Shown here in pieces: positions 45,241-62,843 of a stretch of DNA of 64,000 nt. How positions within the stretch are numbered: the first letter of the stretch is position 1; every line of letters begins with the position of its first letter. This stretch comes from an uncultured bacterium (GTDB lineage: Bacteria > Patescibacteriota > Minisyncoccia > Phycocordibacterales > PALSA-1337): NCBI GenBank assembly GCA_903872035.1, contig CAIQIZ010000029.1, positions 479-64,478 on the forward strand. The letters run 5' to 3'. The notes below the pieces were generated by a model. The model was not told the origin of the DNA. It searched no databases and saw only the letters and a list, made by a program, of their open reading frames with translations. The translations under genes were made by a program, and so were the position numbers.

Positions 45241-45266
45241 TCCGCGGACTTCGAGCTTAGTATCTT

Positions 45267-45300
45267 CCCTGCTTGGCGCATGCCAGACAGGGATTTTTCA
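45267..45300 (+). terminator. Intrinsic terminator
   Basis: ccctg...caggg hairpin followed by atttttcatt. Confidence 0.55.
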
Positions 45301-45342
45301 TTAACTAATCTACTATATACATTGAAGCTAGCAATATCCTAA

Positions 45343-45372
45343 CTATTGACATCGAATCAACTCAACGTATAT
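45343..45372 (+). promoter_or_regulatory. Sigma70-like promoter
   Basis: TTGACA, a 16-nt spacer, then TATATT. Confidence 0.4.
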
Positions 45373-45393
45373 TGCTAAAGCCTGCAATGAGCA

Positions 45394-45993
45394 GTGTCTG
45401 GTATCCGTGCCATTCACGGACCTTTGCCAGAGGTCCTGGCGGGAGGTAGCTTGTACATCGTAATCAAAAGCAAACAGATCGGCCGCGTGGCCTTTATTGT
45501 GCGTCGGAATGCGGAGAGGCGGCTCAACAAAAGATGTTTTCGCCGCTCGAAACGCATGGCGGGAAACTTCATCTATTGGAACGGCGTGAGTGAGGTCATC
45601 AGACAGCACCATGTCATGAATTCCCTGCTGGTGAGCGTCAGGGACGCACTGGCGGAGAACTGCCCCGAAAACAGCACATGCACCAAGGTGCCGTGGGTCG
45701 TCGGCTGGTCCAGCACTGACGCACGCCACAAGTACCATCCGGAAGATCTCGAGACCTTTACGCCGAATGGCAAATGGTGGGCGCTCCGAGTGAAACGGAA
45801 TTGCCGGAAGTTTCGGGCACCAGCGACAAACCAAGTCACCCTGGTCTATGAGATCAAACGCGAACCAAGGCAGACCGCAGTTATCGTCCATTCGATGTAT
45901 CCCGGACCTGATGTAGGTGAATTGGTAGGCGACGTCACAAGACGCGAGGATCGTGTCTTCTTTGATTGGAACCATCCCGGCCAGGCCGTCTGA
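45394..45993 (+). CDS. Hypothetical Arg/Trp-rich protein; strand chosen from the flanking promoter and terminator
   Basis: GTG start. Fully overlapped by an antisense ORF (45343-45975). The plus strand is preferred because of the upstream promoter-like site and the downstream terminator at 46057. Confidence 0.35.
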   Translation: MSGIRAIHGPLPEVLAGGSLYIVIKSKQIGRVAFIVRRNAERRLNKRCFRRSKRMAGNFIYWNGVSEVIRQHHVMNSLLVSVRDALAENCPENSTCTKVPWVVGWSSTDARHKYHPEDLETFTPNGKWWALRVKRNCRKFRAPATNQVTLVYEIKREPRQTAVIVHSMYPGPDVGELVGDVTRREDRVFFDWNHPGQAV

Positions 45994-46056
45994 TTGGAGC
46001 GAAGTAATAGCGATCTAACTTAGTACATTCTTAAAGATTTGCATATTAGTTTTCAG

Positions 46057-46092
46057 CCCACCAGTAGACACACGCTGGCGGGTTTTTTATTT
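46057..46092 (+). terminator. Intrinsic terminator
   Basis: cccaccagtagacacacgctggcggg followed by ttttttattt. Confidence 0.6.
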
Positions 46093-46167
46093 CGCCGAGC
46101 AAGACATCTCGTGATCTTTACAGATTTTAAGCATGTTTAACCCTAACTGGGTGTATACTAGACTTAC

Positions 46168-46644
46168 ATGAATCGCTTCTTGATCGTTTTGATCACCATT
46201 ATGCTCTTGGTAGGAGGGATTTTTTATTGGCAGTCGAAACAATCGAGCACGCCACCTGACATGAAACACCAGGTGCTTTCGGAAGACCTGTACCCTCTTT
46301 ACAACGGCACATCTTGGAACGCTTCTGGAGACGAAAGTTTTGCTATCGGAAACACGACATTCTCTGGTGCGAGCATAAAGTCAGCAACTATTGCAGACAC
46401 GATGGACCCAGGAAGCATCTTCACTCCATTCGAAAGCTATTATGACCAGAAACTCAAAGCACTAGGTTGGCAGACAACAAATGATCTTGCCGCAGGCGGT
46501 CATGTCGGCGGACAAACCGGCTATCGCAAAAATGCCTCGATCATTCTTACGCGTTTCCAAATTGTCTATCACTCTGTCCCAGATAACGCGCCGTCCGAAT
46601 GTCCCTGCGATGTCACGCTTTCGCTCTTTTCTTCAGAAAATTAG
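46168..46644 (+). CDS. Membrane-anchored or secreted hypothetical protein
   Basis: N-terminal hydrophobic helix. 158 aa. Confidence 0.5.
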   Translation: MNRFLIVLITIMLLVGGIFYWQSKQSSTPPDMKHQVLSEDLYPLYNGTSWNASGDESFAIGNTTFSGASIKSATIADTMDPGSIFTPFESYYDQKLKALGWQTTNDLAAGGHVGGQTGYRKNASIILTRFQIVYHSVPDNAPSECPCDVTLSLFSSEN

Positions 46645-46719: not shown

Positions 46720-48099
46720 ATGAATACTGAAATAATTCAGGGTGGAATGGGGGTATATATCTCGACTCCATCCCTGGCAAATATCGTCTCTCGCAACGGT
46801 GCTCTAGGCACAGTGTCTGGAGTAGCTGCAGAACGGATACTAGCCCTCATCTTAGGAAAAGGCGACCCTGGTGGGCATTTTCGAAGAGCCTTGTCACATT
46901 TCCCTTCTCAAAAAATGGCAGAACAGGTCATCGACACCTACTTTATCGAGGAAGGCAATCCGAAAGGTCTGGCGGCCAAACGTGCGCCAATGTTCACGAT
47001 AAACCCATCGGAAATACTCATTGCCCTTAGCGTCACAGCCAATTTTGCATTCGTCTACCTGGCAAAGGAGGGACACGATAAACTCGTCTCCGTGAACTAT
47101 CTGGAGAAGATTGCCATGCCGCACATTTATGCCATCTACGGCGCAATGCTGGCTGGTGTGGACTTCATCACTATGGGAGCGGGCATACCACTTCTGATCC
47201 CTGACGTTATCAACAACTATGCCGAAGGAAAGCCTGCTAGCTATCGCGTACCTGTCGTCGGCCAGAATATCACGAGCCATGCTATGGTTTTTGACCCGAG
47301 TTCATATTTCGGGGAAAAAATGCCTGGCCTCAAAAAACCTGGATTCATCCCGATCATTGCTTCAAATCTCTTGGCATCTATCTTTATGAAGAAATTCAAG
47401 GATAGACCTGGAGACATCTACGGATTTGTAGTCGAGGAATGGACGGCGGGCGGACACAACGCTCCACCCAGAAAAGGTGGCGTATACGGACCAAAGGATG
47501 AGGTCGACTATGGAAAGATCCACGATCTCGGTCTACCGTTCTGGATCGGTGGCTCCAAAGCATCACCAGAGAAATTGCATTGGGCAAAGTCAGTCGGTGC
47601 AACTGGGATTCAGGCGGGTTCAATATTCGCTCTTTGTAGAGAATCGGGTATGGATACAACAATCCGCAAGATAAGTCTTAGGCTTGGTTTCAACAAGGAC
47701 CTTATAGTGAGAACATCTTTAATCGCGTCTCCAGCAGGGTTTCCTTTCAAAGTCGCATGCCTGCCCGGATCTTTGTCTGAGGAAAGTGCTTACCTGTCCA
47801 GGAAAAGAGTCTGCGACCAAGGCGGTTTGAGGACATTATTCGAAAGGCCGGACGGATCGATAGGCTATCGCTGTGCGGCGGAACCTGTAGAAGAATATAT
47901 CAGGAAGCTTGGGTTGTTGAAAGAAACCGAGGGAGCACGTTGTATCTGCAACGGACTCATATCCACCGCCGGCTTGGGCGACGTGGGCGAAGCACCCATC
48001 ATCACGCTAGGTGACGATAACAGATTCCTACAGTACCTCCTGACCCACCCTGAAGGCTCATATGGAGCAGTTGATGCGATCAAGTACCTGTCTCGATGA
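46720..48099 (+). CDS. Nitronate monooxygenase/FabK-family FMN-dependent TIM-barrel oxidoreductase-like protein
   Basis: N-terminal 'IIQGGMGVYISTPSLANIVSRNGALGTVSG', typical of the NMO/2-nitropropane dioxygenase family. 459 aa. Confidence 0.5.
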   Translation: MNTEIIQGGMGVYISTPSLANIVSRNGALGTVSGVAAERILALILGKGDPGGHFRRALSHFPSQKMAEQVIDTYFIEEGNPKGLAAKRAPMFTINPSEILIALSVTANFAFVYLAKEGHDKLVSVNYLEKIAMPHIYAIYGAMLAGVDFITMGAGIPLLIPDVINNYAEGKPASYRVPVVGQNITSHAMVFDPSSYFGEKMPGLKKPGFIPIIASNLLASIFMKKFKDRPGDIYGFVVEEWTAGGHNAPPRKGGVYGPKDEVDYGKIHDLGLPFWIGGSKASPEKLHWAKSVGATGIQAGSIFALCRESGMDTTIRKISLRLGFNKDLIVRTSLIASPAGFPFKVACLPGSLSEESAYLSRKRVCDQGGLRTLFERPDGSIGYRCAAEPVEEYIRKLGLLKETEGARCICNGLISTAGLGDVGEAPIITLGDDNRFLQYLLTHPEGSYGAVDAIKYLSR

Positions 48100-48127
48100 T
48101 CGATTTGACACATCTCGATCATTACAG

Positions 48128-48158
48128 TCCGCCGGTTTTATATCGGCGGATTTTCTTT
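48128..48158 (+). terminator. Intrinsic terminator
   Basis: tccgccggttttatatcggcgga followed by ttttcttt. Confidence 0.65.
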
Positions 48159-48253
48159 CCAATTATTCTGATATGGTTGACAATTTGCTAATTTGTTGTA
48201 TTCTTATACGTGGTAGCAACAGTTGTCTGAAAACTCAACAACGAAAGGACCCT

Positions 48254-48646
48254 ATGCGAACAGAATTATATCGACGGTCAAACGAAACGGACATATCTCA
48301 CCTTCGGAGACTACACGCCTCGATCCTCAGGGATTCCGGATCAATGCAAGACGCGGACACAGAAGCGATCATGTTCCTCATCGACTACATCCCCCGTCTT
48401 TTAGACGAAGTTCAAAGGGCAAGAGACGATCGTCAGGCTAACGCGGAAAAACTTCCGGCGGCGGCGAAAGCTGACAAGAAGGTGGTCGATATCGGATACA
48501 GTAGCCAAGATGGACGTGTCATCTGGCGCCTGCGATATAGCGACAACTCCGTCGGAACATGGAACGATACGACCGTAGAGACCGTTCACACCGAACTATT
48601 CCAAGTATTAAGGGCCAAACTTCGGAGAGAACACGGCCTTGAGTAA
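48254..48646 (+). CDS. Hypothetical protein
   Basis: Internal ATG after the terminator of the preceding gene. 130 aa. Confidence 0.4.
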   Translation: MRTELYRRSNETDISHLRRLHASILRDSGSMQDADTEAIMFLIDYIPRLLDEVQRARDDRQANAEKLPAAAKADKKVVDIGYSSQDGRVIWRLRYSDNSVGTWNDTTVETVHTELFQVLRAKLRREHGLE

Positions 48647-49007
48647 TAGGAAACAAATCATGAGTACAATTATTGAAATCGCCAAATCGCCCCACGAGGG
48701 GATCGGGGCCCAAGCGGGTACTTTCCGCAAAGCGATAGATATCAACGTCGAACACATTTACACGAAAACGGTCGACAGTGCAGTCCTCTATAAAAGCGGA
48801 TTGCTCATTGCCACAGGTCAGATCGCTGTCAAAGGACAGAACAAAGGAATTGTCTTCGAGCTACGCGACGCTCGGATCATCGAGGATTTTATCGGCATCT
48901 GGTGGCCGTCTGAGGTTGAACTGAGATGGTACAGTATGTTGCAACTTTTCACAGAAGAGATCACCCTAGATGGCAGATCTCTCCGTCCACCTCGGGACAA
49001 ACAGTAA
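48639..49007 (+). CDS. Hypothetical protein
   Basis: Overlaps the previous ORF by 8 nt, suggesting an operon pair. A terminator follows. Confidence 0.4.
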   Translation: MSNRKQIMSTIIEIAKSPHEGIGAQAGTFRKAIDINVEHIYTKTVDSAVLYKSGLLIATGQIAVKGQNKGIVFELRDARIIEDFIGIWWPSEVELRWYSMLQLFTEEITLDGRSLRPPRDKQ

Positions 49008-49122: not shown

Positions 49123-50154
49123 ATGCCCTTCTCGCCTAACTATTTTCTCATATTCGAAGCCAGCGGCTTTCTTTTTTTCATAGTGATCTTGGCGCGTGAG
49201 ATATACCAGCGCAATTATGGCAAAATATTTGAGATTATAAGCTGCGCCGTCTTCGGCATGCTCTTGGAGATCGGCGACACTTACCTGGCACACACATATT
49301 CCTATGGCACGAATTTTCTGGTCAACCTAGCTCATGTGCCGGTGGCCATCGGTCTGGGCTGGTCGATCATCATCTATTCGGCCATGCTCCTGAGCGATCA
49401 ATACAATATCCCATGGATGCTTCGACCATTTATGGACGCTTTAACAGCCGTCATGCTGGATCTAGCCATTGATGCAGTAGCCATCCGTCTGGGCTTCTGG
49501 CACTGGGCCATACCGCTGGACCGAGAATGGTACGGGGTTCCTTTTGAGAATATCGTCGGATGGATCTTGGTCGTCCTATCATTTTCCTTCCTGATACGCT
49601 TCATCAGAACCTTGAATCACAAAAGGTTCTTTACCAAAGTCCTCATGGTACTCTCGCCGATACTTTCATACATGGGCCTCATGATCGGACTGTTGACCTT
49701 GAGCATCATAGCTATCCTTCCATATCAAATAAACAATTGGATGACACTGATCTGGTTCAAATACTCGCCTGACCTCTCGATACTCACCAATCCGCAAGTC
49801 GAGCTTTGGAAGTCTATCATCTTGACCATCATGATGACTGAGCTCATCAACATCGTCGTCTGGTCTCTCGTCAAATATCGCCGGAATTATTTGAGACATT
49901 TCGATATCGTCTCATTTACAGCCTTGTCAGGGATCCACCTCATATTTTTTGTGGCCATATTCACTGAAGGAATATATCTGCAATTGCCGGTTCTCGTCGC
50001 CATATCGCTGGTATGTTTCGTCGTCCATCTCCTCATCCACTTCTTACCATTCATGATCAATAGGAAATCGATCTATTTCTTTAAAGTCATAAAGAAGGCC
50101 ACGATCCATGGTGAGGAAAAGCTAGATGATGCCATTGAAGCGGTTTTGAAATGA
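49123..50154 (+). CDS. Polytopic integral membrane protein, hypothetical
   Basis: About 8-9 transmembrane segments across 343 aa. Confidence 0.55.
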   Translation: MPFSPNYFLIFEASGFLFFIVILAREIYQRNYGKIFEIISCAVFGMLLEIGDTYLAHTYSYGTNFLVNLAHVPVAIGLGWSIIIYSAMLLSDQYNIPWMLRPFMDALTAVMLDLAIDAVAIRLGFWHWAIPLDREWYGVPFENIVGWILVVLSFSFLIRFIRTLNHKRFFTKVLMVLSPILSYMGLMIGLLTLSIIAILPYQINNWMTLIWFKYSPDLSILTNPQVELWKSIILTIMMTELINIVVWSLVKYRRNYLRHFDIVSFTALSGIHLIFFVAIFTEGIYLQLPVLVAISLVCFVVHLLIHFLPFMINRKSIYFFKVIKKATIHGEEKLDDAIEAVLK

Positions 50155-51210: not shown

Positions 51211-51582
51211 TTATTTAATGAGACAATCTTTGTATGTCGGGCTATTCGGATCTCCCTCTGTAATGAATGCCGTGTTCCCCTTGTTCCAGAAGACTATCGA
51301 CTCGTCGGTATTGGCATATCTAGCGCCGGAAGCAGAGATGGTCTGCGGCAATGTTAATTCTCCCAAACGTGCAGTCCTGATTCGCGCAAAATTTTTGTAG
51401 AACTCAGCATCGATCGATTTGGAATCAGCACAAGAAAAAGTCACGACATTTATCGGGTATCCCAAGATCTTCACAATAGCTACCTTATGGCCTAGATAAA
51501 AGCCAAAATAGAATACCGCCACAAACAGAATAATGGCAACGATCTGCGAAAAGACAGTGACTTTGGTCCAAATTATTTTCAT
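51211..51582 (-). CDS. MliC-family membrane-bound lysozyme-inhibitor-like protein
   Basis: N-terminal anchor. 'SASGARYANTDESIVFWNKGNTAFI' with two cysteines bracketing the domain (CADS...KDC). Confidence 0.55.
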   Translation of the reverse strand: MKIIWTKVTVFSQIVAIILFVAVFYFGFYLGHKVAIVKILGYPINVVTFSCADSKSIDAEFYKNFARIRTARLGELTLPQTISASGARYANTDESIVFWNKGNTAFITEGDPNSPTYKDCLIK

Positions 51583-51589
51583 GCGATTA

Positions 51590-54500
51590 TTATAACTTTA
51601 ATACATTCTTCACACCACTGACGACACGATCAAAAACATATACAGCGCCGGATGGAACGGCCCATAAAAGATTTTTGGTAAACGACCAGAGAAAGGTTGG
51701 AATGCTAGGCGGCGTGACTAAAACGGTTATTTCAGCATTTGGAGACACGCTATCCATTTCGAGGTTATCTTGTACCGACTGATTAGAATTTGAAACAGGG
51801 GCAGACTTCCTTACCAATACATTTGCGGGAGGATTATTTACAACTGGAGGCACCACGACATTATGTGCCTGTATATCTGCGAGAGTCGAGAACATGCCAT
51901 CGCCGGAAATAGCGCTATTACCAGATCCATCAGTCGAGATCACTGCGTAATGATAAGTCGTGCTCGGTGTAAGGCCGCTCAAAATGACAGAGTGATAAGC
52001 GCTTCTAGTCGAATCCAGGGACGTGAGCTGACCGTAAGTATAGTATAAGCCGTATTTAACCTGGTTAGTGGATAGCTCGTTGGTGTCCCAAGTTATCTCG
52101 ACACTGTTCTTGGTAACATTCGATACGCCAATAGAATAAAGTGACGGCGGTATACTGTCGACTGCTGCACTAAAATTGGCCGAAATAGTATGATTGGCGG
52201 AGATATTGGAAAATGTGTAGGTACCGTTCGTTAAGGAAGAGCTGTTGCCATCAACGACGAAGGAAGATACCTGATAGCCGGCATTGGGAACGATAGTAAA
52301 TGTCTGATTGCTTCCTGAACTTACCGTGATGATTCCGCTGGGAACGACCGAACCATTGGAACGGTAGGAGGAATCGATCGTGTAAGTTACTGTTGGATGA
52401 CTTGAGGCAGTCACAGTTACGCGGTCGGTCGAAGAACGAGATCCATCGGAAACTGAGACTTCTAACACATAGCTACCAGCTTGAGAGAATGTTGCAGTCG
52501 GAGAGATGTTGTGCAAGTTAGAGAATGTTACTGATCCGGGACCAGAGATCTTTGACCACGAGTATGTAAGCGAATCAGCATCAGGATCAGATGAAGCGGC
52601 TGCCGAAAGACTTGCCGTAGCTGGCAAAATAACGGTCTGATCTTGTCCTGCTTCCGCCACTGGAGACCTGTCCAAGTTTATGACAGAGACAGTGACAATC
52701 TTCGAAGCAGAAGCACCATGAGAGTCAGTCGCTGTGAAGGTCACTGCGTAATTTCCAGACTGACTGTACGTCGGTGTCCAAGAGAATGTTTGGTTTGAGA
52801 AATTGAAGGTAGCACCGCTCGGCATATTTGAAGTGCTATACGCTATCACATCACCGTCAGGGTCAGAAGCTGAAACTGTGAAACTCAAACTGGAGTTCTC
52901 ATTGACTGACTTATCACTGATCGCCGTGAACGTAGGCGCGTGATTGCTCTGCTGAGCTGAAAAACTGGCTACGATCGTATGATTGGCGGATATATTGGAG
53001 AGCGTATATGTATTGGCTGTAAGAGAAACTCCAGATCCATCCACGGTCACATTTGAGATTTGATATCCAGGATTGGCGGACACTATGAAAGCCTGGCTGC
53101 TGCCTGAATTTACCGTGACTGAACCGCTTGGCGCGATCGAACCATTAGATCCTGCTGAAGCCGAAATAGTATATGTGACTCTGGGAATATTCACTGGCAA
53201 AGTTACGGTTACTACAGCAGACCTTGATACTGAAACATTCCCTGATCCGTCTTTTGCCCAGGCATATAGGGTCTTTGTTCCTGCCGATGCAAATGTGTAT
53301 GTCGTAGGAGCTGCCGATAACCAACCGGCTGCCCCGGAAGACGGTGTCGTAGCGCCGGTATAGATAGATGTCGCATTTCCAGCACCAGCTGTTTGGCCTT
53401 GCGAACTACCATCTGACTCTGTGACCATGTATCCACTAACGCCAGAAACGATCTGTCCGCTCGTCGAAGGATCACTAGCCACAACAGTGATCGGGACCGT
53501 CAACGAACTGGCTGTTGTAGGCACGGTGAATGTGGTGACGATAGGTATAGTCATATCAGAGCCTGGAGGAGACGCTGGAATATTTGTAACATTTACGTAT
53601 AGTCTACGAATCAAACTATTTGAAACATTGCCAGCTGCATCTTTTGCCCAGGCATACAGAGTCTTTGCGCCACCAGAAGCAACAGTGTAACTAGCTGGTG
53701 CCGTTGCCGACCAGCCGGATGCTGTCGCTAACGGCTTTGTCGACGACTCAGTTATCATATACCCGGTGACTGCCGTCGAATCGACCGCAGTGAGCGAACT
53801 CACCGGGATCGTAAGCGACGTGACCGGACTAGGAGTGAGAAAAGCTGTAACCGTCGGAGGAGTGACATCGAGGTAGGGGTCACCGCTCGAAGATGTCACA
53901 TTTATCGTAACCGATCCCTGAAGAGACGAGACCTGATCATCTGGCGGTGCCCAAACACCGGTCATAGAGATATTCAAAGTAAACTGTGTATGATTTTGAA
54001 TATTAAATATAGCCGAATTCGCCACCAATATCTGACCGGCCGAGTCGATTGAGAATGCCCCGCTTTCATTCCCGCTATTTATCGTAAATCCTCTCGCCTG
54101 GATCGCGTCTGATTGCGAATAAGCGACCTTTCCTACCACAGTACCATTCGCTGCAGATCTATCCACAGTGAATGTCTGAGATTGGATAGTAGGCGGAGTG
54201 TATGAGTTAAAACAGGACATATCCAGGGTCGTCACTTGGTAGATATTGGGATTATTCCCAAGATCAGTCATGGCCTGGTTTATTTCAGGAATATACGCTC
54301 CGACCATAGATGCAATTCCACCACCATGCTGAACTGAAACCAAAATCAAGGTGTTATTGATGAGAAAAAAGCTGGGATGACCAGAGTCCCCGTCATAGGC
54401 CATTTGTGAAAGAAACGGTGTCGCTGCCCAAGTGATAGCTTCCAGACCGAACGGATAGAAGGCGGAATTGGAAGAGTATGCTGTCGTATTATCGCCGCCA

Positions 54501-55204
54501 TTATCGATTTTTCGTATCAAAAATTCGTTAAGCTGATCGAAAAAGATCATTGGCACGTAGAGCGATTGCGATATATGAGAAGACAAATCTGAGCTGGATA
54601 TCACTGGATAATACGCAACTGTGCTGGGTAAATCACTATCAAAGACAACCAGGGCCAGATCGGTTGAACCGATCTCTTTCAACCCCACGACTGTACGGGT
54701 GTAATCGACGCCGTCGGTACCACGGAACAAGACTATTTGATTGAGGTGCACTCCATAACCATTCAAATGCCACGCCGTTAGAGCATGCCTGGGACTGATC
54801 AGAGTAAATCCATAGAAATCGGTGGCAGTGTGGACAATGCTATGACCAGTAAAATTGAGACCAGTCGGCCAAGTACGCAAATAATAACTGGGACTACCAT
54901 TAGGGTCTCTGTTAACATTGGTTGTCGCGTCGGATGGTATAGAGACTCCATTGATCTTACCTTTCAGCTGGCTGAATAATTCCGTATACAAGTACTTTGA
55001 GGCGGGACATGATGAAAGATGGAAAACCGGACCACTAAAACCGACGACTTGTGCCTTCAAGACGTTCGGATTCAGCAATGAAACTGTTCTATTAATCGAG
55101 CTATATTGTGTGCAAATAACAATTAAGGAGGCGACGATAAAAAAACTAATTATGGGCGAAACCTTAGGAGAATTTTTTATGCAAAACTGCATACGGATAT
55201 ACAC
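51590..55204 (-). CDS. Giant surface protein: N-terminal trypsin-like serine protease domain, tandem Ig/PKD/cadherin-like repeats, conserved C-terminal module
   Basis: N-terminal transmembrane or signal segment. S1-like triad motifs 'LTAWHL', 'TDLALVVFD' and 'GDSGHPSFF'. At least four repeated ~90-aa modules (...TYTFSNISANHTI..., ...DPDGD...SWTPTYSQSGNYAVTFTATDSHG...). The C-terminus '...DRVVSGVKNVLKL' is shared with the next gene. Confidence 0.75.
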   Translation of the reverse strand: MYIRMQFCIKNSPKVSPIISFFIVASLIVICTQYSSINRTVSLLNPNVLKAQVVGFSGPVFHLSSCPASKYLYTELFSQLKGKINGVSIPSDATTNVNRDPNGSPSYYLRTWPTGLNFTGHSIVHTATDFYGFTLISPRHALTAWHLNGYGVHLNQIVLFRGTDGVDYTRTVVGLKEIGSTDLALVVFDSDLPSTVAYYPVISSSDLSSHISQSLYVPMIFFDQLNEFLIRKIDNGGDNTTAYSSNSAFYPFGLEAITWAATPFLSQMAYDGDSGHPSFFLINNTLILVSVQHGGGIASMVGAYIPEINQAMTDLGNNPNIYQVTTLDMSCFNSYTPPTIQSQTFTVDRSAANGTVVGKVAYSQSDAIQARGFTINSGNESGAFSIDSAGQILVANSAIFNIQNHTQFTLNISMTGVWAPPDDQVSSLQGSVTINVTSSSGDPYLDVTPPTVTAFLTPSPVTSLTIPVSSLTAVDSTAVTGYMITESSTKPLATASGWSATAPASYTVASGGAKTLYAWAKDAAGNVSNSLIRRLYVNVTNIPASPPGSDMTIPIVTTFTVPTTASSLTVPITVVASDPSTSGQIVSGVSGYMVTESDGSSQGQTAGAGNATSIYTGATTPSSGAAGWLSAAPTTYTFASAGTKTLYAWAKDGSGNVSVSRSAVVTVTLPVNIPRVTYTISASAGSNGSIAPSGSVTVNSGSSQAFIVSANPGYQISNVTVDGSGVSLTANTYTLSNISANHTIVASFSAQQSNHAPTFTAISDKSVNENSSLSFTVSASDPDGDVIAYSTSNMPSGATFNFSNQTFSWTPTYSQSGNYAVTFTATDSHGASASKIVTVSVINLDRSPVAEAGQDQTVILPATASLSAAASSDPDADSLTYSWSKISGPGSVTFSNLHNISPTATFSQAGSYVLEVSVSDGSRSSTDRVTVTASSHPTVTYTIDSSYRSNGSVVPSGIITVSSGSNQTFTIVPNAGYQVSSFVVDGNSSSLTNGTYTFSNISANHTISANFSAAVDSIPPSLYSIGVSNVTKNSVEITWDTNELSTNQVKYGLYYTYGQLTSLDSTRSAYHSVILSGLTPSTTYHYAVISTDGSGNSAISGDGMFSTLADIQAHNVVVPPVVNNPPANVLVRKSAPVSNSNQSVQDNLEMDSVSPNAEITVLVTPPSIPTFLWSFTKNLLWAVPSGAVYVFDRVVSGVKNVLKL

Positions 55205-55206
55205 TA

Positions 55207-56685
55207 TTATAACTTTAATACATTCTTCACACCACTGACGACACGATCAAAAGCGTACTGGAAAAAAGATGGGATGGCGAATACAATTTCCTTGGTAAAT
55301 GACCAGATAAATGCCGGAATGCTGGGCGGCGTTGCAGATGCTATATCCTGACTAATAGGGGAATTTAATATGATAGGGGTGACTTTCTGATCAGATGGGG
55401 CCGGTGTCTTATTGGCAGGCTGGGAGATCTTTTTTGTTACGGATACATTGGCAGGTGGATCGTGCACAACCGGAGGACTAATGATTACTGGCGGATCGAT
55501 AGCGGCATGAGTCTGCACCGGAGATGGACTTATAGTAGCGGCCACGGCAGTGAAATTGGCCATGATCGTATGATTGGCAGTGATATTAGTAAATGTATAA
55601 GTACTATTGGTCAGCGAACCATTGTTATTATCGACAATGACACTGGCGGTTTGGTATCCAGGGTCGGGAATCAAGGTGAAGGTCTGATTGCTTCCGGAAT
55701 TCACCGTCAACTTTCCATTTGGAGAGATGCGTCCGTTCGGATTAGCGGAGGAATTAATAGTGTAGGTGACCATCGGAACGTTAGAAACAGTCATCGTGAT
55801 ACGGTCAGTTGAAGACTTTGTTCCATCTGAAACTGCCAGTTCGATCACATATACGCCAGACTGTGAAAAAGAGGCGGCCGAAGCGACAGTGTGATAACTG
55901 GAAAACGAGACGAGTCCTGGACCAGAGACCTTTGACCACGAATATGTTAACGGATCATTGTCGGGATCGTACGAAGCTGCCGCCGAAAGATTTGCCGAGG
56001 CTGGCAAGCCGATGGTCTGGTCCTGCCCCGCCTCCGCAACTGGAGGCCGGTCGATGTTCACGACCGAGATTGTGACGATTTCAGAAGCAGATACGCCATG
56101 AGTATCAGTAGCTGTGAAGATCACAGAGTAAATGCCCGACTGGTAGTATGTCGGCGTCCAAGAGAATGTTCGACTCGTTGAGTCGAAACTGGCACCACTT
56201 GGCAGATTTGAAGCGGAATAAGTCAGAGTGCCACCATTAGATGGAGATGCGGTAACAGTGAAATTCAATGCGGAACTTTCATTGACAGATTTATTCCCTG
56301 TCGCCACGAAAACAGGCGGGTGCTGGTCTGGCAGCGCAGAAAAACTAACTGCGATCGTATGAGTGGCGATGACATTAGAAAACGTATACGAACCGTTCGT
56401 CAGAGAAACCCCGCTTCCATCGACCACCGCATTCGAAACTTGATATCCCGAGTTAACGGAAACAATGAAGGCCTTACTGCTTCCGGAATTCGCAGTGATC
56501 GTGCCACTCGGTGCTATAGAACCGTTCGGACCGGCGAAAGCAGTAATAGAATATGTAGCCGCCTGACTGGAATCAGCACTCATGGTGGTCGGTCGATATT
56601 GCGTGCAAATAACGATAGTTAATGCAACGAGCAATAAGCTGAGGATCCGTGATACTTCGCGTGAGTTAAATATTTGAGACCGCAT
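55207..56685 (-). CDS. Paralogous surface protein: Ig/PKD-like repeats and the same C-terminal module, with no protease domain
   Basis: Repeats near-identical to 51590-55204 (SWTPTYYQSGIYSVIFTATDTHG). The last ~14 aa are identical. A ~50-bp identical DNA segment lies at both gene 3' ends (51580-51640 and 55200-55260). Confidence 0.75.
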   Translation of the reverse strand: MRSQIFNSREVSRILSLLLVALTIVICTQYRPTTMSADSSQAATYSITAFAGPNGSIAPSGTITANSGSSKAFIVSVNSGYQVSNAVVDGSGVSLTNGSYTFSNVIATHTIAVSFSALPDQHPPVFVATGNKSVNESSALNFTVTASPSNGGTLTYSASNLPSGASFDSTSRTFSWTPTYYQSGIYSVIFTATDTHGVSASEIVTISVVNIDRPPVAEAGQDQTIGLPASANLSAAASYDPDNDPLTYSWSKVSGPGLVSFSSYHTVASAASFSQSGVYVIELAVSDGTKSSTDRITMTVSNVPMVTYTINSSANPNGRISPNGKLTVNSGSNQTFTLIPDPGYQTASVIVDNNNGSLTNSTYTFTNITANHTIMANFTAVAATISPSPVQTHAAIDPPVIISPPVVHDPPANVSVTKKISQPANKTPAPSDQKVTPIILNSPISQDIASATPPSIPAFIWSFTKEIVFAIPSFFQYAFDRVVSGVKNVLKL

Positions 56686-56779
56686 GATAGAATATTTTCA
56701 TAATTGTAGCATTGAAATAGTTTTTTAGGAGGCCTTCGTTATACGGAAGCTTACACAAGTCCCCGCTTGACGCTATAAT

Positions 56780-57745
56780 GTGACCATGAGGCGTTTTGTA
56801 TACGTTATATCCCTAGCTATACTGGTAATCGCAGGTATTTTCATGTACCAAAGATCAGCCATCGTCCAGCAGGTGTTCAATAAGATAGCAATCGGCATAA
56901 AGAATGCGTATTCTCCACCGGTACCCTGCACTCAACCTACCCTGTATTCAGTAGATTCATTCGACGACCGATTTGGCATAGATGTCGGTCAATTCCGGGT
57001 CGATATTGCCAAAGCCGCCACTGTTTGGAACGCCGCTCTGGGAAAAACGCTTTTCAAATACGATCCCGCCGGCCCATTGAAGGTTAACTTGATCTACGAT
57101 TACCGCGAACAAGCTACAGTCCAATTGAAGAAGATAGACATGGCCATAAGCACAGACAAAGGCACCTACGAGGCACTCAAAGCGAAATATGACAGTCTCC
57201 AGCAACAATATTCAGTCCGTAAGGCTTCCCTCCAATCGAGAACCGACTCATACAATCAAGCGCTATCAGCTTACAATGCCCTGGTGGCTTCCTGGAACGA
57301 CCGTGGCGGCGCTCCGCAGGCTGAATATCAGAATCTCCAGACAACAAAGCAAAACCTGGCAAACCAAGCAGCTTCTATTACAAAAGACCGCGCATCTTTC
57401 AACCAATTGGTAGAAAACTTGAATTCAACGGCCGCCGAACTAAATAGCCTCGGCCGGACACTGAACATGAACGTCAAAAATTATAATACCGTCGGAGCCT
57501 CGACTGGCGAGCAATTCAGCGAGGGCGAATATGTGCAAGATTCAGGCAGTACGCGCATCGATATCTACCAGTTCAAAGATGAGAATCAGCTCATCCGAGT
57601 CCTAGAACACGAGCTCGGTCACGCCCTCGGACTGGGGCACGTCAATGATCCCAAAGCCATCATGTATTATCTGAACTCGGGAACAAATGAGAAGCTGACA
57701 GAGGCAGATCTCTCCGAATTGAATGCGATCTGCAGCCAAAAGTAG
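56780..57745 (+). CDS. Membrane-anchored matrixin-like zinc metalloprotease (M10 family) with a coiled-coil region
   Basis: 'LEHELGHALGLGHVNDPKAIMY' is an HExxHxxGxxH plus Met-turn motif. N-terminal transmembrane segment. A Q/A/L-rich coiled-coil middle region. Confidence 0.75.
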   Translation: MTMRRFVYVISLAILVIAGIFMYQRSAIVQQVFNKIAIGIKNAYSPPVPCTQPTLYSVDSFDDRFGIDVGQFRVDIAKAATVWNAALGKTLFKYDPAGPLKVNLIYDYREQATVQLKKIDMAISTDKGTYEALKAKYDSLQQQYSVRKASLQSRTDSYNQALSAYNALVASWNDRGGAPQAEYQNLQTTKQNLANQAASITKDRASFNQLVENLNSTAAELNSLGRTLNMNVKNYNTVGASTGEQFSEGEYVQDSGSTRIDIYQFKDENQLIRVLEHELGHALGLGHVNDPKAIMYYLNSGTNEKLTEADLSELNAICSQK

Positions 57746-58180
57746 CGGTCAGGTAATATTATATCGAGGCTTGGCTTTTGAAGGAATTGAACTATAATGC
57801 AGACAGAGAAAGGCCTCCATATGATAGACGATGAAACTTCAAAAAGTATCATGGCTGGTAGGCTCATCAGACTTGAAACTACCTGCGCCATCGAAGACGA
57901 GGTTATGAACCTAAAGGCGTGGCTCCAGCAATTCCGGCCTGTCGTCACCGTCAATGTTTTTACGGAACAAAACATTACTCGAGCGACATTGTGGATCGGC
58001 GCCCTGCCGCTCGATCGACGATCGCTTTTAGCCGGTACTCTGCGATCCAATCGTCTCAACTTCCGAATTCTGAACGGCAACTCGAGCTGACGCTTCAAGT
58101 ATCATCTCGAAAACGACGTTCACGTGATGTTAAATACCTATCGTGAACGCTTTTTTGTCCAACATAGCCTACACACAACA

Positions 58181-58576
58181 ATGAATCATCAAAATCAAAA
58201 TCGGATCTTCGTCTTTGGAAACCCTGACTTGGAGATGGATTCATTGCCTTTCAAACTCATGCCAAAGCTTGCCGAAGCCTTCCCTTCCATGCGATTCGAA
58301 TTGAAAGATCCAAATGAGGAATGGGATGTACCAGAAGAAATGGTAGTCATAGATGCTGTTATCGACTTGGAAAAGGTCACCATTTTCAATGACTTGGAAT
58401 CGTTCGACGCTTCGCCGCATCTTTCCATGCATGATTTTGATGCGCTCTCCAATCTAAAATACTTAAAGAAACTAGGTAAACTCAAGAAAATTACCATCAT
58501 TGGAGTACCCGTAGGGATAACTGAAGAGGAAGCATTTGAAAATATCACCAAAAGAATCAGAGAGGTCGTGAACTAG
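58181..58576 (+). CDS. [NiFe]-hydrogenase maturation endopeptidase (HycI/HyaD/FrhD family)
   Basis: 'RIFVFGNPDLEMDSLPFKLMPKL' matches the conserved N-terminal motif of hydrogenase maturation proteases. About 130 aa. Adjacent to the hydrogenase genes. Confidence 0.6.
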   Translation: MNHQNQNRIFVFGNPDLEMDSLPFKLMPKLAEAFPSMRFELKDPNEEWDVPEEMVVIDAVIDLEKVTIFNDLESFDASPHLSMHDFDALSNLKYLKKLGKLKKITIIGVPVGITEEEAFENITKRIREVVN

Positions 58577-58577
58577 A

Positions 58578-58604
58578 GACAAAAAAGCGACCTCGCGAGG
58601 CCGC
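58578..58604 (-). terminator. Intrinsic terminator for the minus-strand hydrogenase unit
   Basis: Minus-sense gcggcctcgcgaggtcgc followed by ttttttg. Confidence 0.55.
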
Positions 58605-58608
58605 CGTG

Positions 58609-59064
58609 TTAGATCGATCCATCCTTCTCAACTTCGGCAATGCCAAACAAATGGCAGTAAACCAAATCATCAGTGGCAATAGGAAGCTTGTACCTGTTGA
58701 AGGCACGAAATTTCTTGTCGCCAACAGCGATCAGAGCAGAAATCTCGTTGAAGCTCAGAACTTTACCGACAACGGTATCACATTGGCGCACTCGGCCTTT
58801 ATGCTTCCGCCAGAATGGTCTGACCAAATCTGTAGGCCAATCAGACAGAGTTCGAATGTCAAATCCAGTCTCTTGTGCAAATCGACCAGTCGCTGCCTGA
58901 TAGCAGTTTACCAACAATCTCGTATCTGGCTCTTCGTTTTGATCGACGCACCTGGTCAATTCATCAGCTTCGAACTGTCTAATTTGGCCCCGCTTTACCC
59001 TGAGGTCCAAGCAGAAATATGCGTATCGCAAGAAAAGCAGCTTTCCTGGTATATCAGAAATCAA
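58609..59064 (-). CDS. Hypothetical protein co-transcribed downstream of the hydrogenase large subunit
   Basis: A 151-aa ORF. The minus strand is preferred over the overlapping plus ORF because of the minus-strand terminator at 58578-58604. Confidence 0.35.
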   Translation of the reverse strand: MISDIPGKLLFLRYAYFCLDLRVKRGQIRQFEADELTRCVDQNEEPDTRLLVNCYQAATGRFAQETGFDIRTLSDWPTDLVRPFWRKHKGRVRQCDTVVGKVLSFNEISALIAVGDKKFRAFNRYKLPIATDDLVYCHLFGIAEVEKDGSI

Positions 59065-59126
59065 GTTTCCTTTCTAAAGGCCACAATAATTGGAGCCGAT
59101 TTATTATCTAAAATTAGGATAGCACC

Positions 59127-60506
59127 TTAGGCGCTGCATGTGTAGGGACCGTGATTGTGAGGATGATTTTGATCATGAGAATGACCGTGATCGTGAGAAT
59201 GTGGACCAGCATCTTTCCCCATCCACTTAACTTTCAAGAAATGTGCTCCACAACTCATACAAGGGTCATAAGCACGGATTAACTTCTCTATTTCCATACC
59301 GATCTTCTCTTTGGATTCAGTCTCTATGATAGGCTCAACGACGGCTGCCACATCTCTCTCGATATTCACTTGATTTTGTCCTGTTGGAACAATGACTTCC
59401 CCATCATGGACGATTCCCTGATCATCAATCACGACCTTGTGATACAAAGTGCCCCTCGGCGCTTCAATAACACCAATACCAGTACCAGCACGCATAGGAA
59501 CTTTTATGACAGGTTCTGGCTTGAAGACTGTGCTGCTCAAGATCTCTATCGATTCATCGATCGAATGCAAGATCTCTATAGCTTGCGCCAAATTGTTGTG
59601 GAAGATATTAGTCGATGGGAATAGCTTCAATGCTTCTGCAGCCGACTTCTTGGTATTCGGATGTAACTTATCTTTAGCTAGATTTATCCTGGCCAATGCT
59701 CCAACCATATAGCTCTCACCTTTGTATTTATATGCTGAGGCTTGAGAATATGGAAGCACTGTATGTTCCAAATGGGAGCGGAATTCCTTCTGTTCGTAGA
59801 CCTCACCTGTATCAGTGATGATCTTTCCACCGATATAGCCGAATGTGTCTTCTGGTATCAATGCCATAAACTTGGTCTTTCTGTCCAAGTGCTGTGAATC
59901 CTTAGCAAAAATCTCGATCAAGCGAAGAACGGCCGGTCTGGCAGCTTTCATTTCTTCTATACATTGAGCGGCGCCTTCAGGTGATGGAAATTGTAAGAAA
60001 CCACCAATGACTGGGAACGTGGCATGGACGCTTCTTCCGGCCACCAACTGCGAGAGATGATTTCCAGCAGACTTCACGTCGAAACCATCATGTAATAGCT
60101 GATGCTGCGTAGGGTCGTTATCATCAAAATCGAGAAAGGCGTCTTTATTGAATAGGTCAGGCATGACGAACAAATAGAGATGCAGAGCATGATCACGCGA
60201 AACCAAACCGTGCATGGTCAGCTTGCGGAGCAATTTCGTCTGTGGTGTGACTTCGATTCCTAGAGCATCCTCTGCTGCAGCAATAGCAGCCATGACATGA
60301 GCGTTGGAACATGTACCGCAGATCCTCGACAAATGGGCTGGAATAGCGGCGATGTTCTTGCCTTTCATAGCTTCGGTGAAGAAACGCTTGTACTCGACGA
60401 TAGCGAACTTCACATCGGTGACCTTGCCGTCATTCACGGTCACGTCCATTGAGGCGTCACCTTCTATTTTGGTTATGTGGTCTAGCCGTAGGTCGATTCT
60501 GTGCAT
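59127..60506 (-). CDS. [NiFe]-hydrogenase large (catalytic) subunit
   Basis: N-terminal 'RICGTCSNAH' (RxCGxCxxxH). C-terminal 'DPCMSCGAH' followed by a His-rich tail that matches a protease-cleaved extension. Confidence 0.88.
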   Translation of the reverse strand: MHRIDLRLDHITKIEGDASMDVTVNDGKVTDVKFAIVEYKRFFTEAMKGKNIAAIPAHLSRICGTCSNAHVMAAIAAAEDALGIEVTPQTKLLRKLTMHGLVSRDHALHLYLFVMPDLFNKDAFLDFDDNDPTQHQLLHDGFDVKSAGNHLSQLVAGRSVHATFPVIGGFLQFPSPEGAAQCIEEMKAARPAVLRLIEIFAKDSQHLDRKTKFMALIPEDTFGYIGGKIITDTGEVYEQKEFRSHLEHTVLPYSQASAYKYKGESYMVGALARINLAKDKLHPNTKKSAAEALKLFPSTNIFHNNLAQAIEILHSIDESIEILSSTVFKPEPVIKVPMRAGTGIGVIEAPRGTLYHKVVIDDQGIVHDGEVIVPTGQNQVNIERDVAAVVEPIIETESKEKIGMEIEKLIRAYDPCMSCGAHFLKVKWMGKDAGPHSHDHGHSHDQNHPHNHGPYTCSA

Positions 60507-60557
60507 GGTGATTATTAGGGATTAAAGATTATTTATCGGAAGTTTTGAATTCAAATA

Positions 60558-61043
60558 TTAATAAGATCGCAGCTCTTTAACAAGCGCGTTCACCTTCTCC
60601 AAAAAGACTTTTGGATCCATGGGGCAACCAGGAATCTCTACATCTACCTTTACCACATCGGAGACTTTCTTTACGTCGGTCAAAGCGCCGAATCTGGTCA
60701 GGAGATAATCAATACTGGCTTTTTGTTCTGCCGTAAAATTGTTGCGTTGACCAGCTGGCATGCCGACAATAGCACAGGCACCGACGGCCACAAGCTTCTT
60801 GGAACGATTGCGGATATCTTTGAGTTTCTCAACATGTTCTGGTGAAGCCATGGCACCTTCGATAAAAGCGATATCAAATTCATCCATGATATTGTTGGAC
60901 TTCAAGACGCGAGCGTGGCGAAAATCGAACATTTCTTTCCATTCCTGCCAGTGGTCATTCATGACTTCGGTCATGACGATAGTATTATCCTCACAACATG
61001 AGAATGAGAACCAGCCGATCTTGATCTTGGGTAGGTCTGCCAT
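60558..61043 (-). CDS. [NiFe]-hydrogenase small subunit, minimal form with only the proximal [4Fe-4S] cluster
   Basis: Cysteines at 'FSCCEDN', 'GACAIVG' and 'PGCPM', as in small subunits of group 3/4 enzymes. About 160 aa from the MADLPKIKI start. Confidence 0.8.
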   Translation of the reverse strand: MADLPKIKIGWFSFSCCEDNTIVMTEVMNDHWQEWKEMFDFRHARVLKSNNIMDEFDIAFIEGAMASPEHVEKLKDIRNRSKKLVAVGACAIVGMPAGQRNNFTAEQKASIDYLLTRFGALTDVKKVSDVVKVDVEIPGCPMDPKVFLEKVNALVKELRSY

Positions 61044-61082
61044 AAAAGTGATTGTATCATAATTATCATGTATAATTAAGGC

Positions 61083-62843
61083 GTGAGAAAATCCCACGAC
61101 AGTGTGTTCACAGTCGGCATAGGTGGAGCAGCCGGCGATGGTATCCGGGAATCGGGTTCCACTCTTGGCGCCATCCTGACCGAGCTCGGATATGAGTCGT
61201 TCATGTCATTCACCTATCCTTCGCTCATCCGCGGCGGGCACAATTTTGCGCGCATAACTTTCAGCAAAGACAAAGTCTACTCCGATCACGAAGCCTTGGA
61301 CGTCATGATCGCCTTGAATGAAGAGAGTGTCGTCTTCCATCGAGCCGAGATGGCCGAAAACTCCGTAGTCATGGCGGATACGTTTGAACAAGCCGACCTC
61401 GATGTGTTGAAAGACAAAGCTTTGGTAATTCCCATGCAAGCCAAGGCCAAGGAAATAAACGCTCCAGCCATCACCAGAAACTCAATGGCCCTAGGCGCAC
61501 TCTGTTATCTGCTCGACCTTGATTTTGATCTTATGCAAAAAGTCCTCGGTGATGTGTTCAAGAACAAAATGCCTGAGATGAATATCAAATTGGCCGATGC
61601 TGGGTACCAATTGCTCAAAGCCAAGGGATTCAAACATTCGAAAAAGATCCAGCCGAGCCAAGAAAAAAAACAATTCGTCGACGGCAACGAAGCTTTCGGC
61701 CGAGGCTTGGTAGCAGCGGGCCTCGACTTCTATGTCGGGTATCCGATGACTCCAGCAACAACCATACTTCAATACCTGGCTGGCGCAGCTCAAAAAGCCG
61801 CCCAGTCGCCCGAACGCGAAATCGGTTCGAATCTGCGCGTCATTCAACCTGAAAGCGAACTCTCTGTTATCAATATGGCCCTGGGAATGTCCTATGCCGG
61901 CAAGCGCGTGGCTATCGGATCCGCATCCGGCGGCTTCGCATTGATGCAAGAAGCTTTCAGCTGTGCAGGAATGGCCGAATTGCCGCTTGTTGTGGCTGTC
62001 TCCCAGAGACAAGCACCGGCTACCGGTTTACCTACATATTCTAGCCAAACTGACCTCCGTTTCGTCATTCATGCCGGTCATGGAGAATTCCCTAGGATCG
62101 TCGTCGCACCAGGCGATGGAGAAGAAGCATTCAAGCTTGGCGCAGACGCATTGAACTTAGCCTGGAAGTATCAGTTGCCAGTGATCGTATTGTTGGACAA
62201 GATTATTTCAGAACACATCACCTCGTGCGACTTGAAAACAGACGCGATTAAGATCGACCGTGGATTGATATTAACTGCTGCCGATAATTACGGCCGATAC
62301 CAAATCACTTCTGATGGCATCTCCCCTATAGCATTTCCAGGAACTTCCAATGCCGTAGTCAAAGTGACAAGCTATGAGCATGATCAGAATGGCATTACAG
62401 TCGATGATCCGGATGCTACCAAAGCCATGCTCAATAAGCGTTTCGCCAAATCTGACAGATTGAAGAAATCGCTCGGTGACCAAGAGACAGTCAAAGTATA
62501 TGGAGACCGTCTTAGCAAGGATGTCGTTGTTTTCTGGGGTTCGACTAAAGGACCTGTTTTGGAATCAGCCAGATATCTGAAGAAAAAAGTAAAATTCGTA
62601 CAAATCGTCTGGCTGGAACCTTTTGACGTCAAACGAGTTGCCAAAGAATTGGCTGGGGTAAGAAGAATAATCAACATCGAATGTAACCACGATGCCCAAA
62701 TGGCTAATTTGATCAGAGAGAAGACTGGCATCGAGGTGACGGATAAGATATTGAAATTTGATTCGAGGCCATTCGAGCCGGTGGCACTGGCCGAGGAGAT
62801 CAACAAGTCGCTAGGTGAAGCCTCGCGAGATCTCGCAAGGTGA
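61083..62843 (+). CDS. 2-oxoacid:ferredoxin oxidoreductase alpha subunit (KorA/PorA-type, fused domains)
   Basis: 586 aa. A pyruvate/2-oxoglutarate:ferredoxin oxidoreductase domain arrangement with conserved 'GYPMTPAT...' and 'VAPGDGEEAF'. Translationally coupled to the beta subunit. Confidence 0.8.
   Translation: MRKSHDSVFTVGIGGAAGDGIRESGSTLGAILTELGYESFMSFTYPSLIRGGHNFARITFSKDKVYSDHEALDVMIALNEESVVFHRAEMAENSVVMADTFEQADLDVLKDKALVIPMQAKAKEINAPAITRNSMALGALCYLLDLDFDLMQKVLGDVFKNKMPEMNIKLADAGYQLLKAKGFKHSKKIQPSQEKKQFVDGNEAFGRGLVAAGLDFYVGYPMTPATTILQYLAGAAQKAAQSPEREIGSNLRVIQPESELSVINMALGMSYAGKRVAIGSASGGFALMQEAFSCAGMAELPLVVAVSQRQAPATGLPTYSSQTDLRFVIHAGHGEFPRIVVAPGDGEEAFKLGADALNLAWKYQLPVIVLLDKIISEHITSCDLKTDAIKIDRGLILTAADNYGRYQITSDGISPIAFPGTSNAVVKVTSYEHDQNGITVDDPDATKAMLNKRFAKSDRLKKSLGDQETVKVYGDRLSKDVVVFWGSTKGPVLESARYLKKKVKFVQIVWLEPFDVKRVAKELAGVRRIINIECNHDAQMANLIREKTGIEVTDKILKFDSRPFEPVALAEEINKSLGEASRDLAR

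Follow-up and report, generated by a model that had tools for sequence, protein, structure and literature searches.

The locus at positions 51211 to 57745 of the DNA analysed here raises the question of whether its four genes encode proteins displayed on the cell envelope, and how two of them, a protease and its paralogue with immunoglobulin (Ig)-like domains, might be held there. The whole stretch, hereafter the window, comprises 64,000 nucleotides (nt) of contig CAIQIZ010000029.1 (positions 479 to 64,478, forward strand) in assembly GCA_903872035.1 of an uncultured bacterium of Patescibacteriota. On the minus strand, gene B (55207..56685; 492 amino acids, aa) is followed by gene A (51590..55204; 1204 aa) and by a gene for a protein resembling the lysozyme inhibitor MliC (51211..51582; 123 aa). 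The gene of an M10-like metzincin (56780..57745; 321 aa) is divergent and lies on the plus strand. A preliminary description, made from the letters of the window alone, had reported these four genes, with the MliC-like gene on one flank and the metzincin on the other, and the open reading frames (ORFs) were found at those positions; its word "giant" was overstated for proteins of 492 and 1204 aa. We consider it moderately probable that the locus encodes an envelope-displayed protease and an adhesin-like paralogue, together with an MliC-type protein and a metzincin. Such a locus would be of an ordinary kind, composed of exported proteases, Ig-like surface proteins, and a homologue of a lysozyme inhibitor. 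The main useful by-product of the analysis is a large S1-like protease family that is largely missed by curated models. A literature search returned nothing specific to the locus.

Residues 62-338 of protein A (54191..55021, minus strand) were assigned to a chymotrypsin-fold serine peptidase domain (PA clan, S1-like) on the basis of a family profile, an AlphaFold model, Foldseek, and hhalign. Direct comparison with curated resources did not detect the domain: Pfam gave no match at E<=10, including PF00089 Trypsin and PF13365 Trypsin_2, NCBIfam gave none, and a phmmer search of the PDB returned only chance matches to GAPDH. A word-indexed protein search recovered three distant homologues, among which the His, the Asp, and the GDSG motif were invariant. 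When a profile of four sequences was used in HMMER, 4,412 cluster representatives were retrieved from a 50%-identity library at E<=1e-3, and 1,326 of them at E<=1e-30. Residue conservation was counted over 154 domain copies from the best 150 family proteins. The proposed catalytic residues, all encoded on the minus strand, were nearly invariant in this set: His146 (codon at 54767..54769) in 153 of 154 copies, Asp182 (54659..54661) in all 154, and the proposed nucleophile Ser274 (54383..54385) in 153, with the G-D-S-G motif around the latter conserved at 99–100%.

Structure prediction led to the same assignment. An AlphaFold model built on a 95-sequence alignment reached a predicted local distance difference test score (pLDDT) of 83 and a predicted template modelling score (pTM) of 0.86; a first model from four sequences had a pLDDT of 53 and gave the same chymotrypsin-fold outcome. 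The Foldseek comparison of the model with the PDB yielded 804 matches at E<=1e-3, and among the matches listed, 50 out of 50 were chymotrypsin-fold serine proteases, including plasmin, factors IXa and Xa, chymotrypsin, and Streptomyces trypsin. Target-normalised template modelling (TM) scores against single-domain PDB chains were 0.45–0.61. In the hhalign profile alignment with bovine trypsin, LTAWH was placed on VVSAAH (His57), TDLAL on NNDIML (Asp102), and GDSGHP on GDSGGP (Ser195). The preliminary description had proposed a trypsin-like domain from the motifs LTAWHL, TDLAL, and GDSGHP, which begin at residues 142, 181, and 272, and had named a failure of the triad to align with S1 proteases as the result that would speak against it. 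The triad does align, and both it and the fold were upheld; detection by sequence in Pfam, NCBIfam, or the PDB was not obtained, and the family profile and the model were required. On this basis, the domain is a predicted PA-clan S1-like serine peptidase and represents a large subfamily poorly covered by curated models.

The extent of that poor coverage could be estimated from the family itself. PF00089 was reached by 3 of 95 members, with a best E of 1.8e-6, and the family profile compared with PDB trypsins gave E values of 0.03–0.2. About one third of the members carry a Big_2 domain at the N-terminus, and many are about 400 aa long. The best viral structural match was an uncharacterised protein of an uncultured tailed phage (BFVD A0A6J7XEP5; E 1e-13). 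A phage origin of the protease domain was not supported by PHROGs, whose matches in other members were confined to the Ig (Big_2) segments. The family deserves a curated model of its own: its members are now labelled "hypothetical," the Pfam Trypsin model finds about 3% of those sampled, and no PHROG covers the domain. Two further observations concern proteases of this type. One family member has a pilin-like N-terminus, and the window contains a second, conventional trypsin-like gene (38484-39254, plus strand; 256 aa) that matches Trypsin_2 (E=8.6e-12) and Trypsin (E=3e-5) and does not belong to the protein A family.

Protein A consists of a hydrophobic N-terminus, the S1-like protease, about eight beta-sandwich modules, a linker, and a C-terminal tail. 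The modules form a stalk that spans residues 344-1100 (51905..54175, minus strand) and was delimited with Pfam, NCBIfam, and a visible repeat. Their order is a weak cadherin-like segment, two repeats of about 100 aa, Flg_new_2, He_PIG/Big_9, PKD, Flg_new_2, and fn3. The Pfam scores in bits, with the cut-offs in brackets, were 69.5 (27) for K319L-like_PKD, 64.4 (27) for PKD_4, 60.0 (24) for He_PIG, 59.8 (23.6) for Big_9, 34.0 (23.6) for Flg_new_2 (InlB B-repeat), and 31.8 (30) for Pur_ac_phosph_N/fn3. The fn3 assignment is marginal, with PF00041 fn3 at 23.6 bits and thus below its cut-off of 25. Residues 344-670 hold the two copies of the repeat of about 100 residues, which ends in TLYAWAKD.(A/S)GNVS, and the cadherin-like match at residues 344-427 was not significant (E 0.12). 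Of the four or more PKD/cadherin-like repeats attributed to protein A in the preliminary description, the Ig-like modules, PKD among them, were therefore recovered above the cut-offs, and the cadherin-like part was not. The Ig fold of the repeats, whose absence that description had treated as a counter-argument, has support from He_PIG, Big_9, PKD, and Flg_new_2, all above their curated cut-offs.

Protein B has four modules and comprises an N-terminal hydrophobic segment, Flg_new_2, He_PIG/Big_9, PKD, a second Flg_new_2, a Pro-rich linker, and the tail. It shows the same Pfam set as protein A with the exception of fn3, and it had correctly been recognized as a paralogue that carries the repeats only, without the protease. 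B aligns to residues 677-1021 of A with 64% amino acid and 68% nucleotide identity; thus, B represents a copy of the central cassette of A together with both termini. The linkers between stalk and tail have an amino acid identity of only 13%. The best homologues of B were found in metagenome-assembled genomes of Omnitrophota, Dehalococcoidales, and Margulisbacteria, with 37–41% identity over 37–44% of its length. These far-flung matches mirror the promiscuity of Ig domains and not lineage.

The genes of the minus strand are closely spaced. Gene A can be read from a GTG at 55204 (1204 aa) or from an ATG at 55192 (1200 aa); public gene callers use the latter, which we regard as the more likely start. 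The distance from the stop codon of B to the start of A is accordingly 2 nt for the GTG or 14 nt for the ATG, and 7 nt separate the stop codon of A from the ATG of the MliC-like gene. Public assemblies carry B as a gene call of 492 or 458 aa. Most likely, B, A, and the MliC-like gene form a single tightly packed operon, beside which the M10-like gene is divergent. Several metagenomes, probably from lakes, contained the same gene arrangement on a total of at least 18 contigs. In the five contigs compared, the sequence matched the window at 100% identity across 8.6 kb (6.1 kb in one shorter contig). The recurrence of the arrangement at full identity indicates that the locus belongs stably to one clonal population in the environment and did not arise as an artefact of assembly.

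A comparison of genes A and B showed that 46 nt at their 3' ends are identical, including the stop codon (48 nt with the next two bases). The ~50 bp of identical DNA mentioned in the preliminary description is thus confirmed. The block comprises the stop codon, the last 14 sense codons, and 1 nt of the preceding codon; one copy (51590..51635, minus strand) lies directly before the start of the MliC-like gene and the other (55207..55252, minus strand) directly before the start of A. It occurs exactly twice in the window and in none of 100 shuffles. The codon alignment of A and B (489 positions) has an overall nucleotide identity of 64.5%; the longest exact run is formed by 43 coding nt of the tail, and the next longest measures 15 nt. 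Where A and B encode the same residue elsewhere in the alignment, 49% of the codons carry a synonymous difference; a row of 14 unchanged codons then has a probability of about 8e-5.

The simplest explanation would be a short gene-conversion tract between tandem paralogues. Recent duplication or gene conversion had been proposed, and the contrast between the 46-nt identity and the level of about 65% elsewhere argues for recent gene conversion, with constraint at the nucleotide level as the alternative. In that alternative, selection would have kept the 46 nt because the gene downstream of them depends on them for translation initiation or coupling. The two copies do end close to a start codon, 2–14 nt ahead of that of A and 7 nt ahead of that of the MliC-like gene; A+T accounts for about 85% of the last 20 nt; not one synonymous change has occurred over the 14 codons; and GGAGG-type motifs were missing upstream in a set of about 20 window genes, most of which have no Shine-Dalgarno motif. 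However, the block reaches as far as 46 nt upstream, and initiation has no obvious need for the GC-rich half at its 5' end. It stands at no other gene junction in the window, and its predicted secondary structure was not significant (z between -0.2 and -1.4), a result by which a reading of the block as an RNA structure was rejected as well. Conversion between tandem paralogues is also the simpler process, and we regard selection on the nucleotides as unlikely. The five contigs compared are all clonal and 100% identical across the locus, and the two processes are not separable from these strains. An origin of the block as the target or template repeat of a diversity-generating retroelement was rejected: neither 3' end has a third copy in the window or in a 10.7-kb extension of the contig, and no reverse transcriptase was found among the annotated ORFs of the window. 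The sharp identity within otherwise diverged tandem genes may serve as a clean example of short gene conversion; an initiation region that is conserved in a genome without Shine-Dalgarno sequences would be the less probable reading.

The 46-nt block encodes part of a C-terminal tail that A and B have in common, and the two proteins also resemble each other at the N-terminus. In A, Kyte-Doolittle hydropathy rises above 1.4 only at residues 14-31 (55112..55165, minus strand), a putative signal peptide or signal-anchor that ends in IVICTQY. The same motif is present at residues 24-30 of B, with synonymous differences between the genes, and was not found in the other proteins searched. The tail occupies residues 1164-1204 of A (51593..51715, minus strand) and 452-492 of B (55210..55332, minus strand), and these last 41 residues are 73% identical. 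It consists of TPPSIP, an aromatic/hydrophobic stretch, and the amphipathic DRVVSGVKNVLKL, in which both proteins end, as had been observed initially. Over the final 11–18 residues, the helical hydrophobic moment is 0.5–0.7, as in an amphipathic helix. The hydrophobic stretch, interrupted by K/N or K/E, has a Kyte-Doolittle mean below 1.3 and remains under transmembrane thresholds.

The preliminary description had suggested that this C-terminal module is a sorting or anchoring signal. In its fullest form, this idea would make the shared termini a dedicated sorting system, with IVICTQY at one end and TPPSIP, the hydrophobic stretch, and DRVVSGVKNVLKL at the other acting as a lineage-specific tripartite signal for covalent attachment to the envelope by an undescribed enzyme. 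The layout is indeed like that of sortase and exosortase substrates, with an enzyme, an Ig-like stalk, a Pro-rich linker, a short motif, a hydrophobic stretch, and a charged end, and both termini were kept between A and B while the linker diverged to the level given above. Like the LPXTG, PEP-CTERM, PGF-CTERM, MYXO-CTERM, and GlyGly-CTERM signals, the tail forms the very end of the protein, is preceded by a Pro-rich linker, and combines a short motif, a hydrophobic stretch, and a charged end. In contrast to these tripartite signals, its stretch is broken by charges, its amphipathic end is long (13 residues, more than in known signals), it has two carriers, and no gene of a cognate sorting enzyme was seen in the window.

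The searches for further carriers also spoke against a sorting system. The tail was not found elsewhere in the window or in the contig extension (about 75 kb together), and it was absent from 276 homologues of the protease domain of A or of B. Scans of GTDB genomes and JGI metagenomes, in which other lineages were covered, gave no relatives, whether the query was DRVVSGVKNVLKL back-translated into exact patterns, the aligned pair of tails, or full-length B. Thus, the occurrence on other surface proteins on which the preliminary description had made its proposal depend was not observed. No sortase-, exosortase-, archaeosortase-, or rhombosortase-like gene was detected in the window, and no NCBIfam sorting-signal model matched A or B. 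The only two carriers are tandem paralogues, whose shared ancestry accounts for the similarity. We consequently judge a sorting system to be improbable; on present evidence, the tail is a relic common to two paralogues, and our best guess for its role would be a membrane-interface or partner-binding element. A broader idea, to which we assign a still slighter chance, is that the IVICTQY segment and the 41-residue tail may define an undescribed, lineage-restricted mounting of long Ig-like proteins on the envelope. Both ends could then be tethered, or the tail could be recognized by machinery of a new kind, and further carriers might exist elsewhere in the genome. If the tail did anchor these proteins, it would open a way into the surface proteome of a bacterium that has not been cultivated; the present evidence does not support anchoring.

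With respect to the catalytic function of protein A, the peptidase is probably active, judging from the conserved triad and the modelled fold. A catalytically dead pseudo-protease, in which the S1-like domain served for binding only, would agree with the lack of detectable sequence similarity between A and characterised S1 enzymes and with the replacement of several family consensus residues near the active site of A, such as N111T, W124V, N125H, G133F, and R262T. However, the His, the Asp, the Ser, and the GDSG motif with the glycine of the oxyanion hole are all present in A and almost never vary in the family; we therefore hold a loss of activity to be quite doubtful.

The third gene of the operon encodes the MliC-like protein. 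Its match to PF09864 MliC (54.2 bits, cut-off 22; E=1.5e-14) and its conserved SGARY and W.KG loops confirm the earlier assignment of a gene of this type beside the pair. The segment ISASGARY...VFWNKGNTA aligns with ISASGARY..VFWSKGDEA of Escherichia coli MliC/YdhA (2F09), weaker matches were obtained to the PliC/MliC structures 4MIR, 3OE3, and 3F6Z, and the protein remained far below all cut-offs of the NCBIfam equivalog models. The domain, the two loops, and two Cys (51 and 120) are common to this protein and to MliC/PliC proteins such as YdhA, Pseudomonas aeruginosa MliC (3F6Z), and Brucella PliC (4MIR). It differs from them in its location in an operon with surface proteins and in its N-terminus, where a hydrophobic helix of about 28 residues (9-36) of the transmembrane type takes the place of a lipobox or a cleaved periplasmic signal. 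There is no lipobox Cys, the first Cys being at position 51, and the N-terminus fits neither the lipoprotein targeting of MliC nor the soluble periplasmic targeting of PliC. That the MliC-like protein is instead a dedicated partner of protease A, as its inhibitor or immunity protein in a protease/inhibitor operon, is very unlikely: the 7-nt gap and the probable co-transcription with A speak for it, as does the precedent of ecotin, a small beta-barrel inhibitor encoded with or alongside S1 proteases, but the lysozyme-contact motifs are kept almost exactly as in E. coli MliC, two other members of the protease family that were examined have no MliC neighbour, and we know of no protease inhibitor with the MliC fold. 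A conserved protease/MliC neighbourhood was rejected on the same two contexts.

The divergent gene encodes a hydrophobic N-terminus, a helical region of about 135 residues, and a zinc site with a Met-turn. The Pfam model Peptidase_M10 was matched with 37.5 bits (cut-off 24) over profile positions 102-153 of 159 only, which correspond to the third of the domain that contains the zinc site. HELGHALGLGH at residues 277-287 is followed by the Met-turn AIMYY, and the zinc site aligns with HELGHALGLEHSNDPTAIM of MMP-16 and with matrilysin. The helical region before the active-site helix draws many weak coiled-coil matches. Compared with karilysin and fragilysin, bacterial matrixin-like members of M10, the HExxHxxGxxH motif, the Met-turn, and an N-terminal export signal are common features. 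Unlike in matrixins, only the zinc-site third is recognizable here, Val and not Ser follows the third His, and the helical region stands in front of the site; no PRCG cysteine switch is present, and Cys occurs only at positions 50 and 318. A membrane-anchored matrixin-type zinc protease with a coiled coil had been suggested. The zinc site, the Met-turn, and the hydrophobic N-terminus fit this suggestion, and a full matrixin domain was not found: the protein has neither a full-length catalytic match, nor Ser after the third His, nor a cysteine-switch prodomain.

The start of this gene could be refined. Public gene callers give products of 300 or 319 aa. The best sigma-70-like promoter match of the region (56750..56779, plus strand), a consensus match only, consists of CTTACA, an 18-nt spacer, and TATAAT, and it stops 6 nt before an ATG at 56786. 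Because the match runs to 56779, this ATG is the more probable start; it yields 319 aa and keeps the hydrophobic N-terminus. This arrangement suggests a leaderless mRNA.

Taken together, the parts of the locus can be combined into the following tentative scheme. In favour of export, a single hydrophobic segment stands at the N-terminus of every one of the four proteins, and Cys66 and Cys331 enclose the protease domain of A; all four products would be extracytoplasmic and associated with the envelope. Protein A would be exported through its N-terminal segment and present a serine peptidase on a stalk of about eight modules, followed by the Pro-rich linker and the 41-residue tail. Protein B, devoid of an enzyme, would most likely share this surface as an adhesin-like partner that binds or serves as a spacer. 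The MliC-like protein would be tethered to the membrane through its N-terminal helix and most likely guard peptidoglycan against c-type lysozyme; that the cell has peptidoglycan is suggested by the Ddl, MurA, and MreB genes of the window. The metzincin would be a second membrane-tethered protease. The tail, with an aromatic stretch followed by an amphipathic helix, may contact the membrane interface or a binding partner, and gene conversion would keep the last 46 nt identical in the tandem paralogues.

Several points weigh against this scheme. The protease domain of A, taken alone, has no sequence match in Pfam or the PDB. The combination of genes is not conserved as a system, in that the contexts of the two other protease-family members contain neither an MliC nor an M10 neighbour. 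The tail has too polar a composition to form a classic transmembrane helix, and its role in anchoring is a guess. The protease would lie next to the membrane if the N-terminus served as an anchor, or at the tip if the signal were cleaved and the tail anchored the protein. In addition, not all proteins with an MliC domain inhibit lysozyme.

The preliminary description had also read the locus as one for attachment and host interaction in an episymbiotic or host-associated bacterium with a small genome; nothing observed here speaks for or against a link to a host. The rest of the contig carries ordinary housekeeping genes, namely those for HisRS, Ddl, UvrABC, ClpB, RseP, RRF, MreB, MurA, PriA, Def/Fmt, and G6PD, as well as genes of anaerobic energy metabolism for pyruvate:ferredoxin oxidoreductase (PFOR), ADP-forming acetyl-CoA synthetase, and NiFe hydrogenase. 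The latter belong to a locus adjoining the one described here (58124-62843 of the window; 10805-12838 of the matching contig L007), which encodes a putative hydrogenase maturation protease, the large and small subunits of the NiFe hydrogenase, the alpha and beta subunits of PFOR, and the ADP-forming acetyl-CoA synthetase. This cluster is an anaerobic fermentative energy module. On the other side, about 1 kb from the operon, a multi-pass membrane protein of 343 aa is encoded (49123-50154, plus strand) that is weakly similar to CruF/carotenoid-synthesis proteins (PF04240; TIGR03460 far below cut-off). ORFs without a Pfam or NCBIfam match form a run at 37603-38355, 39466-40854, 43214-46644, and 48062-49007, and such genes make up a high share of a region in which core housekeeping genes are also found.

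Independent assemblies of different samples contained contigs of 75,177, 75,196, 75,198, and 75,232 bp that were 100% identical where compared. The breakpoints of the assemblies seem to coincide, as would be expected if both ends carried repeats, and the population is clonal across samples. An ORF of 507 aa (28628-30151, plus strand) combines an N-terminal HTH_3 domain (Cro/C1-type) with a full EPSP_synthase/MurA-type domain, which is an unusual fusion. Six tRNA genes are located at 9343-10940 on both strands (Val-CAC, Pro-GGG, Ala-GGC, Pro-CGG, Ala-CGC, and Ala-TGC), and this cluster holds all three GCN-decoding Ala isoacceptors found. The tRNA-His gene at 1134-1209 adjoins the gene of HisRS.

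Comparison of protein A with known proteases places it near well-characterized enzymes and outside their present models. With the S1 family of clan PA in MEROPS, it has in common the double beta-barrel fold, the order His-Asp-Ser, and the GDSG motif around the nucleophile. The spacing of the triad is 36 and 92 residues in A versus 45 and 93 in chymotrypsin. Unlike S1A enzymes, A lacks the conserved disulfides, with AWHL in place of AAHC. It further differs from S1 in an extra helical N-terminal segment and in the family-specific motifs YVRN..W and SPWNS and a C-terminal helix that ends in QLT..DLS.F. Relative to PF00089 and PF13365, to which protein A has no significant match, it belongs to a separate family that is often combined with Big_2 and includes the phage protein.

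As whole proteins, the closest counterparts of A are the Gram-positive cell-envelope proteinases, such as lactocepin PrtP and the streptococcal C5a peptidase ScpA, and the serine protease autotransporters of Enterobacteriaceae (SPATEs), of which SepA (PDB 5J44) was among the structures matched. All of them follow the same plan of a signal, an N-terminal protease, a long stalk, a linker, and a C-terminus that holds the protein to the cell. The cell-envelope proteinases are S8 subtilisins anchored by LPXTG and sortase, and in the SPATEs the stalk is a beta-helix and the translocator a beta-barrel. Protein A is unlike both in its Ig-like stalk and in its 41-residue C-terminal tail, for which no matching machinery was seen, whereas the chymotrypsin-fold protease is common to protein A and the SPATEs.

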